A program made the translations under genes and the position numbers. DNA of 4,573 nt from a virus (taxonomy: Duplodnaviria > Heunggongvirae > Uroviricota > Caudoviricetes), in the IMG/VR virus record IMGVR_UViG_2700989367_000011; one strand, written 5' to 3'. Numbering within the stretch: the stretch's first letter is position 1; every line of letters starts with the position of its first letter. Below, one piece after another: positions 1 to 4,573 of the stretch. The notes beneath the pieces were generated by a model, which made no database searches, was not told the origin of the DNA, and worked only from the letters and a program-made list of their open reading frames with translations.

Positions 1-413
1 GCCTGTCATGGGCTGTTAATCATTACCGTGATAACGCCATTACCTACAAAGAGCAGCGCGACAAAAACGCAAGAGAACTGAAGCTGGCGAACGCAACCAT
101 TACTGACATGCAGCAGAGACAGCGTGATGTTAATGCACTCGATGCTAAATACACGAAGGAGTTAGCTGATGCGAAAGCTGAAAATGAAACTCTGCGCGCT
201 GATGTTGCCGCTGGTCGTCGTCGGTTGCACATCAAAGCAGTCTGTCAGTCAGTGCGTGAAGCCACCACCGCCTCCGGCGTGGATAATGCAACCAGCCCCC
301 GACTGGCAGACACCGCTGAACGGGATTATTTCACCCTCAGAGAGCGGCTGATGACGATGCAGATGCAACTGGAAGGGGCACAGGAGTATATCCGCACTCA
401 GTGCATTAAGTAG
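1..413 (+). CDS. Rz: Rz i-spanin (inner-membrane spanin subunit), 5'-partial; codon phase starts at nt 3, stop TAG 411-413
   Basis: The frame is open from the window edge. Its translation ([136 protein letters not shown]) is near-collinear with phage lambda Rz as I recall it. The ATG at 108 is internal, not the start. Confidence 0.92.
169..351 (+). CDS. Rz1: Rz1 o-spanin (outer-membrane lipoprotein), embedded in the +1 frame of Rz
   Basis: 60-aa [63 protein letters not shown] with a signal peptide, a lipobox (VVGC, Cys at about residue 20) and a proline-rich mature part. AGGAG at 157-161 sits 7 nt upstream of ATG 169. The gene lies wholly inside Rz, the classic lambda Rz/Rz1 arrangement. Confidence 0.88.
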
Positions 414-455
414 CCTTTTTATCGTGGTAAACATTTCGCAGGGTATGAGGTATTT

Positions 456-727
456 ATGCCATCACTAATCCCACGTGCCTGCCGTAAGCGTGGATGTGCA
501 GGTACAACCACAGACAGTTCGGGTTACTGCGATAAACATCGCGGTGAAGGCTGGGTGCAGCACCAGCGCGGACTGAGCCGCCACCAGCGTGGCTATGGCT
601 CAAAATGGACGGTGATTCGTGCCCGTATTCTGAAGCGCGATAAAGGTCTGTGTCAGTTGTGTCTGCGTGTCGGTGTGGTGAGCGAGGCGAAAACCGTCGA
701 CCACATCATCCCGAAAGCGCATGGCGG
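456..727 (+). CDS. HNH endonuclease (phage packaging-associated type), 3' end lost in the N gap
   Basis: ATG 456 is preceded by GAGG (447-450) at 5-nt spacing. The translation has zinc-finger-like Cys pairs (CRKRGC, GLCQLC) and the start of an HNH motif (VDHIIPKAHGG) just before the N run. Its position directly upstream of the terminase genes matches HK97-like phages. Confidence 0.85.
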
Positions 728-951: not shown

Positions 952-1344
952 GTTTTTACGCCCATCAAAGGTGTTGAGCCACCAGAGTGGTTCGCTGAAG
1001 AAGATCTCCCTCTCGCCACGATCATGTGGCAACTGACAACCAAAGAACTCTGCGGTCAGGGCCTGCTGTGCGTGACTGACCTGGCGGTACTTGAGCGGTG
1101 GTGCGTGGCCTATGAGTTCTGGCGACGTGCCGTGAAAAATATTGCCATACAGGGCAACACCATCACCGGTGCAATGGGCGGCAGGGTCAAAAATCCGGAG
1201 CTGACCGCCAAAAAAGAACAGGAGTCCGAGATGAGCAGCACGGGGGCAATGCTCGGACTCGACCCCAGCAGCCGCCAGCGTCTGATTGGCCTGGCGGGGC
1301 AGAAGAAAGCCACTAACCCGTTTCTGAAAATTATCGAATCATGA
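952..1344 (+). CDS. Terminase small subunit (P27 family), 5' end lost in the N gap
   Basis: The reading frame is open from the gap to TGA 1342-1344. The translation ([130 protein letters not shown]) fits the P27-family pattern as I recall it (PEW..E, GLL..D...L..YC.AY..W, LGL.P.SR.RL). The stop overlaps the terL start in ATGA. Confidence 0.85.
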
Positions 1345-3074
1345 GCCGGAAATCTTACCCCAACGTAAATGCTGCAAATCAGTATGCCCGGGATGTCGTG
1401 CGCGGAAAGATTGTTGCCTGCCAGTTTGTGATTCAGGCCTGCCAGCGCCATCTTGATGACCTGATGGCGGAAAAAAGTAAGTCGTTTCGTTACCGCTTCG
1501 ACAAGGACCTGGCTGAACGGGCCGCGAAATTTATTCAGCTGTTGCCGCACACCAAGGGGGAGTGGGCATTCAAACGGATGCCCATCACGCTGGAGCCGTG
1601 GCAGCTATTTGTGATCTGCTGTGCGTTTGGCTGGGTCAATAAAGGCACCCGGTTGCGCCGCTTCCGGGAGGTGTACACCGAAATCCCCCGTAAGAACGGC
1701 AAATCAGCAATCTCTGCCGGTGTTGCCCTGTATTGTTTTGCCTGTGATAACGAGTTTGGCGCGGAAGTGTATTCCGGTGCCACGACAGAGAAACAGGCGT
1801 GGGAAGTCTTTCGCCCGGCGCGACTGATGTGTAAACGCACACCCATGCTGACGGAAGCGTTCGGGATTGAGGTTAACGCCTCAAACATGAACCGTCCGGA
1901 GGATGGCGCGCGGTTTGAACCGCTGATCGGCAACCCAGGTGATGGTTCATCACCCCACTGTGCCGTGGTTGATGAATATCACGAGCATGCCACCGATGCG
2001 CTTTATACCACAATGCTTACCGGGATGGGGGCGCGACGTCAGCCACTGATGTGGGCCATCACCACCGCCGGGTACAACATTGAGGGGCCGTGCTACGACA
2101 AGCGGCGGGAAGTCATCGAGATGCTCAACGGCTCGGTGCCTAACGATGAACTGTTCGGGATCATCTATACCGTTGATGAAGGTGACGACTGGACCGGCCC
2201 GCAGGTGCTGGAAAAAGCCAATCCAAATATTGGCGTGTCGGTTTATCGCGAATTTTTGTTAAGTCAGCAGCAGCGTGCGAAAAATAACGCCCGTCTGGCA
2301 AACGTCTTTAAAACAAAACACCTCAATATCTGGGTGTCGGCGCGTTCGGCGTATTTCAACTTGGTGAGCTGGCAGAGCTGCGAGGATAAATCACTGACCC
2401 TTGAGCAGTTCGAGGGGCAGCCGTGCATTCTGGCCTTTGACCTGGCGCGTAAGCTGGATATGAACAGCATGGCGCGACTTTATACCCGCGAGATTGACGG
2501 TAAAACGCATTACTACAGTGTGGCCCCGCGTTTCTGGGTACCGTATGACACGGTGTACAGCGTCGAGAAAAATGAAGATCGACGGACAGCCGAACGCTTT
2601 CAGAAATGGGTGGAAATGGGCGTTCTGACCGTTACCGATGGTGCGGAGGTGGATTATCGCTACATCCTCGAGGAGGCCAAAGCGGCGAACAAAATCAGCC
2701 CGGTCAGTGAGTCACCCATCGACCCCTTCGGGGCGACCGGGTTGTCACATGACCTTGCTGATGAAGACCTGAATCCCGTCACTATCGTCCAGAACTTCAC
2801 CAATATGTCCGATCCGATGAAAGAGCTGGAAGCAGCGATTGAATCGGGACGTTTTCATCATGACGGCAATCCCATCATGACCTGGTGTATCGGCAACGTG
2901 GTCGGCAAAAACATGCCGGGTAACGATGATGTGGTGAAACCCGTCAAAGAGCAGGCGGAAAACAAAATCGATGGTGCAGTTGCGCTGATTATGGCGGTTG
3001 GCAGAGCCATGCTGTACGAGAAAGAAGACACGCTGTCTGACCACATTGAGTCCTACGGGATCCGCTCGCTTTAA
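1341..3074 (+). CDS. terL: Terminase large subunit (HK97 / Terminase_1 type), ATPase plus nuclease
   Basis: 577-aa ORF with a Walker A-like motif IPRKNGKS and a Walker B-like motif [11 protein letters not shown] in the N-terminal ATPase half, and acidic residues in the C-terminal half ([22 protein letters not shown]) consistent with the nuclease domain. Its size and position between terS and portal fit. The ATG at 1341 overlaps the terS stop. Confidence 0.95.
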
Positions 3075-3085
3075 CTGAGGTAATT

Positions 3086-3268
3086 ATGATCATGCTGATT
3101 CTCGCGCCTCTGGTGGGCGTGCTGGGTGCGCTTTTGCTGGCGTATGGTGCCTGGCTGATTTATCCCCCGGCGGGTTTTGTTGTTGCCGGGGCGCTGTGCC
3201 TGTTCTGGTCGTGGCTGGTGGCGCGATATCTCGACCGTACACGGCAGTCTGTCGGCGGAGGTAAATAG
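3086..3268 (+). CDS. Small hypothetical membrane protein (60 aa, two predicted transmembrane helices)
   Basis: GAGG (3077-3080) lies 5 nt upstream of ATG 3086. The translation [60 protein letters not shown] has two hydrophobic stretches separated by a YPPAG turn and a basic C-terminal tail. Its TAG stop (3266-3268) overlaps the portal GTG start. I do not recognise the family. Confidence 0.5.
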
Positions 3269-4424
3269 TGTTCTTTTCGGGATTATTTCAACGAAAAAGC
3301 GATGTGCCGGTGACCACGCCAGCAGAACTGCTGATGCTATCGGGCTGTCATACGACACCTATACCGGAAAGCGGATCAGTAGCCAGCGGGCCATGCGCCT
3401 GACGGCGGTCTATTCTTGCGTCAGGGTGCTGGCAGAGTCTGTTGGTATGCTGCCCTGCAGTCTCTACAAAATCAGCGGTACCCTGAAAACACGGGCGGTG
3501 GATGAACGACTGCATAAGTTGGTTTCGGCAAAACCTAATGGCTACATGACACCGCAGGAATTCTGGGAGCTGGTTATTGTCTGCCTGTGTCTACGGGGGA
3601 ATTTTTACGCCTACAAGGTAAAGGCACTGGGAGAAGTGGTGGAGCTTCTTCCGATAGATCCGGGCTGTGTGGAACCGAAGCTGAACAGCCAGTGGCAGCC
3701 GGTTTATCAGGTGACGTTTCCGGATGGTTCCGTGGATGTGTTGACCCAGAATGAAATCTGGCATGTGCGCACCCTGACGCTGGATGGACTTGTCGGGCTG
3801 AATCCCATTGCGTATGCGCGTGAGGCCATTTCACTGGCAGCGGCAACCGAGGAGCACGGTGCCAGGTTGTTTAGTAATGGTGCGGTGACATCCGGTGTGT
3901 TGCGTACGGAACAAAAGCTCACGCCGGATGCTTACGAGCGTCTGAAGAAAGATTTTGAGGAGTGTCACACGGGGCTTGGCAATGCTCACCGCCCGATGAT
4001 TCTGGAAATGGGGCTGGACTGGAAGTCGATGGCGCTGAACGCCGAGGACAGTCAGTTCCTGGAAACCCGCAAGTTTCAGCTGGAAGAAATCTGTCGTCTG
4101 TTCCGGGTGCCGTTGCACATGGTGCAGAACACCGATCGCGCCACCTTCAACAATATCGAAGAGCTGGGGCTGGGATTTATCAACTATTCACTGGTGCCGT
4201 ATCTGACCCGCATCGAACAGCGGATCAACACCGGACTGGTACGAAAAAGTAAGCAGGGCGTTTATTACGCCAAATTTAACGCCGGGGCGTTACTGCGCGG
4301 GGATATGAAGTCCCGTTTTGAAGCCTACGCCACCGGGATCAACTGGGGAATTTACTCTTCCAATGACTGCCGCGACCTGGAAGATATGAATCCGCGTCCC
4401 GGTGGTGTAATGCCGATCAGTTAA
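3268..4424 (+). CDS. Phage portal protein (HK97 family), apparently disrupted: N-terminus in a different frame from the body, and the 3' end runs into the IS4 terminal repeat
   Basis: GGAGG (3257-3261) lies 6 nt upstream of GTG 3268, and that frame gives a portal-like N-terminus MFFSGLFQRKSDVPVTTPAELLMLSG before stopping at 3400-3402. The portal body (…ISSQRAMRLTAVYSCVRVLAESVGMLPCSLY… to …GINWGIYSSNDCRDLEDMNPRPGG) is in the frame shifted by one and has no ATG/GTG/TTG start before ATG 3393. The final codons VMPIS and the stop (4407-4424) are read from the IS4 end. The ORF-track start at TTG 3177 is not supported. Confidence 0.8.
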
Positions 4425-4425
4425 G
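4408..4425 (+). repeat. Putative IS4 terminal inverted repeat (left)
   Basis: TAATGCCGATCAGTTAAG is immediately followed by a second GATCAGTT copy (the octamer repeats at 4415-4422 and 4426-4433). The other inverted-repeat copy and the target duplication are outside the window, so this cannot be confirmed here. Confidence 0.5.
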
Positions 4426-4457
4426 GATCAGTTGACCGATCCAGTGGCTGTGTAAGA

Positions 4458-4491
4458 ATCCGGAAACGCTCACTTGTTTCCGGATTTTTTT
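4458..4491 (+). terminator. Intrinsic-terminator-like hairpin (10-bp perfect stem, 8-nt loop, T7 run) inside the IS4 end, ending directly at the transposase ATG
   Basis: ATCCGGAAAC (4458-4467) pairs perfectly with GTTTCCGGAT (4476-4485), with loop GCTCACTT, followed by a run of T through 4491. The only Shine-Dalgarno-like element for ATG 4492 (GGA 4482-4484) lies in the 3' arm of the stem. Confidence 0.5.
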
Positions 4492-4573
4492 ATGCACATT
4501 GGACAGGCTCTTGATCTGGTATCCCGTTACGATTCTCTGCGTAACCCACTGACTTCTCTGGGGGATTACCTCG
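4492..4573 (+). CDS. insG: IS4 transposase, N-terminal 27 codons (3'-partial; runs off the window)
   Basis: The translation MHIGQALDLVSRYDSLRNPLTSLGDYL matches the N-terminus of the E. coli IS4 transposase InsG as I remember it. The frame is open to the window end. Confidence 0.8.
   Translation, partial: MHIGQALDLVSRYDSLRNPLTSLGDYL

Follow-up and report, generated by a model that had tools for sequence, protein, structure and literature searches.

A one-base deletion and an IS4 insertion in the portal gene of a phiP27-like Shigella sonnei prophage

The sequence analysed here (the window, 4573 bases) is a block of phage late genes in which the portal gene follows ymfR and gives way, from 4408 on, to the left end of an IS4 element (Table 1). 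The same gene order, i.e. HNH, cos, TerS, TerL, ymfR, portal, protease, capsid, is found in phiP27 and in many E. coli prophages. The homologue of the ymfR-like gene is labelled either "protein YmfR" or "membrane protein" in E. coli A36, phiP27, ST64B, SfII and SfI.

Table 1. Features of the window and their coordinates.
Feature	Coordinates	Strand	Remarks
Phage_lysis spanin/Rz-like gene, 3' part	ends 413		
HNH endonuclease gene	starts 456		interrupted by 223-N run at 728-950
P27-type small terminase (TerS) gene, 3' part	ends 1344		
Large terminase (TerL) gene	1341-3074		577 codons
ymfR-like small membrane protein gene	3086..3268	+	60 codons; from the ORF list; directly 5' of portal gene
Shine-Dalgarno GGAGG	3257..3261	+	from the sequence; identical in 9/9 intact relatives compared; 6-nt spacer to GTG
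Portal pseudogene 5' fragment, original frame	3268..3402	+	21 native codons (MFFSGLFQRKSDVPVTTPAEL), 23 out-of-frame codons, TGA 3400-3402
Frameshift site, single G for GG doublet	3330..3330	+	CTGGCT in intact alleles, CTGCT in window; codon 22
Portal body, codons 22-380 and first base of codon 381	3330..4407	+	-1 frame relative to GTG 3268
Internal ATG, Met43 of intact protein	3393..3395	+	7 nt upstream of the first base of the TGA (3400)
IS4 target-site duplication, 12 bp, left copy	4396..4407	+	GTCCCGGTGGTG; same 12 bases after IS4 right end, L019 4197-4208
IS4 left end	4408..4573	+	terminal inverted repeat TAATGCCGATCAGTTAAG from 4408; transposase ATG 4492

Some peculiarities of the window and of its counterparts lie outside the portal gene. 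The length of the N run is false: complete S. sonnei genomes have 301 bases between positions 727 and 951, and this stretch holds the 3' end of the HNH gene, the intergenic region in which the cos site of phiP27 is annotated and the start (~100 bases) of the small terminase gene. The S. sonnei chromosome CP044191.1 is 100% identical to the window from 951 onward, but its spanin/HNH region (L007 4580-5309) is only 92% identical to window positions 1-727, with indels, which suggests recombination with another prophage copy. In the complete assembly CP021144.1 (L008) a run of four C instead of five is found at 7824-7828, corresponding to window positions 3164-3168 within ymfR. This CCCC destroys the ymfR gene call, is seen in that one assembly alone and looks like a long-read homopolymer error; in contrast, the portal frameshift described below is found in every assembly.

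The GTG codon of the portal gene (3268-3270) overlaps the TAG stop of ymfR (3266-3268) by one base, as TAGTG, and the GGAGG that the sequence-only reading had placed 6 nt upstream is present. The frame opened by this GTG is 44 codons long, reads MFFSGLFQRKSDVPVTTPAELLMLSGCHTTPIPESGSVASGPCA and ends at TGA 3400-3402, again as that reading had it. The 44-residue product is absent from the protein collection and matches no Pfam family, which is to be expected of an out-of-frame fragment. The portal body (...RAMRLTAVYSCVRVLAESV...) lies in the -1 frame, i.e. the one whose codon starts are divisible by 3, which stays open over 3177-4424; the body itself shows neither another indel nor a stop. Between 3183 and ATG 3393 the body frame contains no ATG, GTG or TTG. 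The only earlier starts are three TTG codons (3177, 3180 and 3183), which lie inside ymfR and have no ribosome-binding site. The earlier statement that the body has no start before ATG 3393 holds only downstream of 3183; in the original annotation of strain Ss046, AAZ89394.1 was started at TTG 3180. Gene callers start a 343-residue "portal protein [Shigella sonnei]" at ATG 3393, before which there is no good ribosome-binding site.

When a single G is restored (see below), the frame reads MFFSGLFQRKSDVPVTTPAELADAIGLSYDTYTGK... and the product is recognised as a portal protein. The Pfam model PF04860 gives 359.2 bits (cut-off 39.1) over profile positions 2-321 of 321, and TIGR01537 (portal_HK97) gives 263.6 bits (cut-off 112.05) over positions 3-343 of 343. 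There are also matches to two portals of known structure, the chains 8cez_A (E=1.5e-51, query residues 27-382) and 9lbn_H (E=1.5e-50, query residues 24-380). As to the position in the head module, TerL and ymfR are found upstream as in phiP27, and IS4 is found downstream in the window, with either the protease and capsid genes (L019) or chromosomal genes (other S. sonnei genomes) behind it. The strong full-length model matches are shared with the HK97-family portals of known structure (8cez_A/8fql, 9lbn_H), but the dodecameric portal of that family is precluded here by the frameshift and the truncation. A single uninterrupted native frame is not found, as there is a deletion at 3330 and an IS4 truncation at 4408; the portal gene is a pseudogene of the HK97 family (PF04860 / TIGR01537) and not a functional member of it.

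The closest counterparts are the portal L38 (NP_543090.1) of the Stx2e phage phiP27 and near-identical E. coli prophage portals that lie downstream of ymfR. Once the G is put back, a gapless alignment of residues 1-380 gives 97.1% identity to phiP27 and 97.4% to E. coli A36. The window and phiP27 have in common the order HNH, TerS, TerL, ymfR, portal as well as the GTG start, the Shine-Dalgarno sequence and the TAGTG overlap; compared with the phiP27 portal gene, codon 22 is short of one G in the window and IS4 stands in place of the last 33 codons. SfI, SfII, SfIV and ST64B are 85-87% identical at the DNA level across the end of TerL, ymfR and the start of the portal gene, and have the same N-terminal sequence. 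These four were deposited as complete phage genomes with an uninterrupted portal frame, whereas the frame in the window is interrupted.

The similarity to phiP27 is not uniform along the window. Over 1341-4405 the DNA identity to phiP27 and E. coli A36 is ~82%, and the TerL gene is likewise about 82% identical to phiP27, which makes the prophage a mosaic relative of phiP27 rather than phiP27 itself. From about 3057 on the two are closer, with ~95% identity over 3060-3700 and 92.6% over the portal coding region. In other words, there is a mosaic joint at the TerL/ymfR boundary (1341-3056 versus 3057-4407). We also note that a 1764-bp record named "Enterococcus phage Efm 3-10" (OR844959.1) is 96.8% identical to window positions 3060-3397 (end of TerL, ymfR and portal start); it is probably mislabelled or a contaminant.

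The N-terminal part of the portal was compared in nine intact relatives (phiP27, ST64B, SfI, SfII, phi467, vB_EcoM-689R6, E. coli A36, E. coli C311 and the IMG/VR contig L013). All nine are open from the GTG: the N-terminus MFFSGLFQRKSD... is present at the GTG equivalent and in frame with ...RAMRLTAVYSCVRVL..., and it includes the sequence (A/E)PVTTPAELA(E/D)AIGLSYDTYTGK(R/Q)ISSQRAMRLTAV(Y/F)S.... The sequence-only reading had named intact portals that begin at the equivalent of ATG 3393 and lack MFFSGLFQRK as evidence that would speak against it; such portals were looked for, and the relatives start at the GTG instead. In codons 1-42 of the nine relatives 13 of the 16 variable sites are third positions, and the amino acid is changed in only 3 of the 42 codons. 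Judged from the sequences, this pattern is the signature of a translated, constrained stretch. In the restored protein the Pfam match starts at residue 47 and the TIGRFAM match at residue 39. Similarity to 8cez_A sets in at residue 27 and to 9lbn_H at residue 24, both ahead of Met43, so a start at ATG 3393 would remove part of the conserved portal sequence.

The annotation of the portal start is inconsistent across the clade. The GTG-equivalent start is annotated in six records (phiP27, E. coli A36, E. coli C311, SfII, 689R6 and phi467). For ST64B the coding sequence is made to start at an ATA codon 3 nt before the GTG, and in the RefSeq record of SfI the intact portal is annotated from the internal ATG, although the GTG frame is open.

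The exact position of the lost base was determined by comparison with the relatives. A query of 641 bases (window 3060-3700) found matches in 1394 records of E. coli and 20 of phages. The 30 E. coli matches listed all span 642 bases against the 641 of the query, and each of the 19 phage matches that cover at least 98% of the query is one base longer than the part of the query that it covers. In other words, the central claim of the sequence-only reading, that a one-base deletion separates the true N-terminus at GTG 3268 from the portal body, is borne out by intact relatives with one additional base. In the alignment with phiP27 and E. coli A36 there is a single gap between 3329 and 3331 (CT-GCTGATGCT versus CTGGCGGAGGCT). 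As this stretch also carries substitutions, IMG/VR was searched with the window's own local sequence, using a pattern that permitted one optional base at either of two positions. Six contigs were found with the allele of the window and one (L013) with CAGAACTGGCTGATGCTATCGGGCTG, i.e. the same 25 bases plus one G. The GG context of L013 and the alignment gap together show that the missing base is one of the two G in a GG doublet. The alternative deletion position that was allowed in the pattern, CTGCTG-ATG, is used by no IMG/VR sequence. The remaining G, 3330, closes the Leu21 codon (CTG) in the start frame and opens the Ala22 codon (GCT) in the body frame. The sequence is correctly restored as MFFSGLFQRKSDVPVTTPAELADAIGLSYDTYTGKRISSQRAMRLTAVYSCVRVL..., locally ...AELADAIGLSYD..., and residues 15-30 of the restored portal are …TTPAELADAIGLSY….

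The range of about 3330 to 3400 that had been given for the shift holds, with the site at its extreme upstream edge, but the candidate site within that range does not. The GGG run at 3342-3344 misses the site by 13 nt on the downstream side, and the reconstruction ...AELLMLSGLSYD... that follows from an extra G there occurs in no relative: this repair gives LMLSG where all the relatives have A(D/E)AIG.

The 3' end of the gene is lost to a second lesion. Portal homology ends at 4407, and the last 33 of the 413 portal codons are replaced by VMPIS followed by a stop. That an IS4 element interrupts the same gene had been proposed from the window, and is confirmed by inverted repeats, transposase matches and junctions. 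The left repeat TAATGCCGATCAGTTAAG agrees with the reverse complement of the right repeat TAATGCCAGTCAGTTAAG at 16 of 18 positions, the complete element is 1426 bp long (L006 9068-10493), and its 442-residue product matches Nterm_IS4 (PF13006), DDE_Tnp_1 (PF01609) and the IS4 family transposase model NF033592. Members of the IS4 family typically duplicate 11-13 bp of their target. In the IMG/VR contig L019 the right end of IS4 is followed by GTCCCGGTGGTG, then by the rest of the portal gene and the protease, capsid and tail genes; the right-hand junction (L019 4150-4260) thus reads IS4-GTCCCGGTGGTG-ATGTCTATC..., ahead of the prohead protease and capsid genes. The presence of GTCCCGGTGGTG on both sides of IS4 means that the insertion made a 12-bp target duplication. 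With its inverted repeats, a DDE transposase with the IS4 N-terminal domain, a length of ~1.4 kb and a direct duplication, the element has the characteristics of IS4.

In the left end of IS4, at window positions 4449-4486 and shortly before the transposase ATG, there is a GC-rich hairpin with a T run behind it (GAATCCGGAAAC...GTTTCCGGATTTTTTT). It resembles a terminator that would block read-through from the portal gene. The draft contig L019 has irregularities of its own. At 2443-2838 the portal junction runs into an uninterrupted portal 3' end and protease start with SNPs (GGTGGGGATGTC versus GGTGGTGATGTC), past which there is one N before the sequence resumes within IS4. The contig appears to have been mis-joined here to a second, paralogous copy of a P27-like prophage in the same genome. 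The loop of the IS4 hairpin beside the N is inverted in L019, probably as an assembly artefact at a palindrome.

The DNA that follows IS4 differs between S. sonnei strains. In most complete genomes IS4 leads into chromosomal DNA instead of the prohead protease, capsid and tail genes: raiA-pheA in L006 and L007, and bamE-recN in L003-L005, L008 and L009. Where IS4 was examined in the strains of the bamE-recN type, another IS was found inside it. In Ss046 and several others (L009 10191-11520, L003-L005) this is a ~1.33-kb IS3-family element (HTH_Tnp_1 and rve), and the IS4 transposase is consequently truncated in these genomes. The differing chromosomal DNA points to a strain-dependent, IS4-mediated rearrangement that parted the portal gene from the rest of the head module.

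The distribution of the frameshift allele was investigated in public assemblies. A look-up of the window's exact TerL protein in the assembly collection led to 4305 blocks; ten places were fetched, seven of them on contigs of 4.8-5.0 Mb. The 153 bases of 3268-3420 are identical in all ten, i.e. in CP000038.1, in six other contigs of 4.8-5.0 Mb and in short-read drafts, and they are found without change in the six IMG/VR contigs. CP000038.1 is the chromosome of S. sonnei Ss046 (PMC5447701). With the N run left aside, most of these sequences agree with the window at 100% of 3623 bases, and in the comparison with the same prophage in related strains the single-G allele is present in all ten assemblies. 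The 343-residue product that starts at ATG 3393 and a 336-residue form cut by contig ends each occur on at least 1000 contigs, and every named member of the 343-residue cluster is S. sonnei. A 414-residue form is AAZ89394.1 of Ss046 (L009 7840-9084), whose start at TTG 3180, inside ymfR and in the body frame, masks the frameshift. About 16 loci were inspected base by base and the remaining S. sonnei were covered by exact-protein look-up (counts of at least 1000), so that a rare lineage with an intact allele may exist. In complete E. coli genomes neither the intact nor the deleted form of the allele was found, the best match being 93.5% identical over the 153 bases, and the remnant appears to be specific to S. 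sonnei among the collections searched. A scan for the allele pattern in a collection with one genome per species gave no match; we assume that S. sonnei may not be separate from E. coli there, and the scan is therefore uninformative.

Of the two explanations offered by the sequence-only reading, a real inactivating mutation or a homopolymer error in a draft, these data decide for the former. It is true that the window contains a scaffold gap of 223 N and hence comes from a draft, that the lost base lies in a two-base run, and that a singleton run-length difference does occur nearby (C4 versus C5 in L008). Nevertheless, an error would not recur across so many independent assemblies: the same 153 bases stand in Ss046, in the six other contigs of 4.8-5.0 Mb, in the remaining fetched drafts and in six IMG/VR contigs, and the 343-residue call is made on at least 1000 contigs. 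The probability that the true genome has GG at 3330 and an intact frame is therefore practically negligible, and the frameshift is a real, lineage-wide allele of S. sonnei. A programmed -1 ribosomal frameshift that joins the two frames into a full-length portal is suggested by the layout, as the body is in the -1 frame, which overlaps the frame of the GTG over 3330-3402 and stays open throughout. We regard it as next to impossible, since there is no in-frame slippery heptamer of the type X XXY YYZ in 3268-3402, the two-frame layout is not conserved (nine of nine intact relatives use one frame), the lesion is no more than the deletion of one base at a CTG-GCT junction that is not slippery, and the gene is truncated by IS4 in addition.

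Two further possibilities concern the internal ATG. If the portal truly started at ATG 3393 (MRLTAVY...) and the upstream 44-codon ORF were unrelated to it, the lesion would be of no consequence. The annotation of SfI, the points at which the Pfam and TIGRFAM models begin and the 343-residue gene calls are all in line with such a start, but it is extremely unlikely: the frame of SfI itself is open from the GTG, which six other records annotate; codons 1-42 vary mainly at third positions (13/16 sites); GGAGG and the TAGTG coupling are conserved, while ATG 3393 is preceded by no good ribosome-binding site; and the similarity to 8cez_A sets in at residue 27. It is also conceivable that ribosomes terminating at TGA 3400-3402 reinitiate at ATG 3393 and produce a portal that lacks 42 N-terminal and 33 C-terminal residues but retains some activity. 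The ATG and the TGA overlap within ATGCGCCTGA, the truncated ORF carries no further lesions, and every S. sonnei genome that was inspected has the locus. In a recent clonal lineage, as S. sonnei is, 100% conservation is to be expected, so that the last point is uninformative on selection; moreover, the truncation takes away the C-terminal end of the protein. As far as can be judged from the sequence, an active reinitiated portal is very unlikely. That such a product (residues 43-380 plus 5 IS4-encoded residues) would be dominant-negative towards the portals of incoming P27/SfI/SfII-like phages is exceedingly improbable; if true, a dominant-negative truncated portal would be a defence of S. sonnei encoded by a prophage remnant.

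The reading that we prefer is a real, lineage-wide inactivating frameshift, i.e. that the portal gene is a twice-inactivated pseudogene in a degraded phiP27-like prophage of S. sonnei (probability roughly 0.95). The restored portal gene differs from that of phiP27 at 84 nucleotides, 71 of which are third positions; 68 of the differing codons are synonymous and 10 nonsynonymous, and there is no other stop or indel. The predominance of synonymous changes indicates that almost all of the divergence arose while the gene was under selection, and the lack of other stops or indels indicates that the inactivation is recent relative to the split from phiP27-like phages.

The gene carries two lesions. 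In one, a G of the GG doublet in codon 22 (3330) was deleted. Ribosomes that start at GTG 3268, with its strong Shine-Dalgarno sequence and its coupling to the ymfR stop, would then make 21 correct and 23 wrong residues before they reach TGA 3400-3402, and the portal domain (residues 22-380), now in the -1 frame, would not be translated from the native start and at best poorly translated otherwise. In the other, IS4 was inserted after codon 380 with its 12-bp target duplication and removed the last 33 codons. A functional portal would no longer be made, and the prophage would be unable to build heads from this locus. We infer that the locus has no remaining function. The strain variation at the locus, i.e. 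the second IS inside IS4 in some strains and the differing DNA beyond IS4, is found on top of these lesions.

Pseudogenisation by IS elements and by frameshifts is a general phenomenon in Shigella genomes. The present case combines a point frameshift and an IS in one prophage gene, and nothing sets it apart from that pattern. The lesion is ordinary and already known, in that the sequence is present in thousands of public assemblies, where it is annotated as a truncated or partial portal. It is of some value for annotation, as the lesion is hidden by three public gene models: the 414-residue Ss046 model that starts at TTG, the 343-residue model that starts at the internal ATG, and the SfI model that starts at its internal ATG. 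Furthermore, the single G at 3330 and the IS4 junction (4396-4407) could serve as markers of the S. sonnei lineage, provided that no lineage has an intact allele, and the locus is a worked control for telling a real frameshift from an assembly error. For the biology of S. sonnei the finding carries little weight: it is one more case of prophage decay in an IS-rich, recently clonal pathogen.
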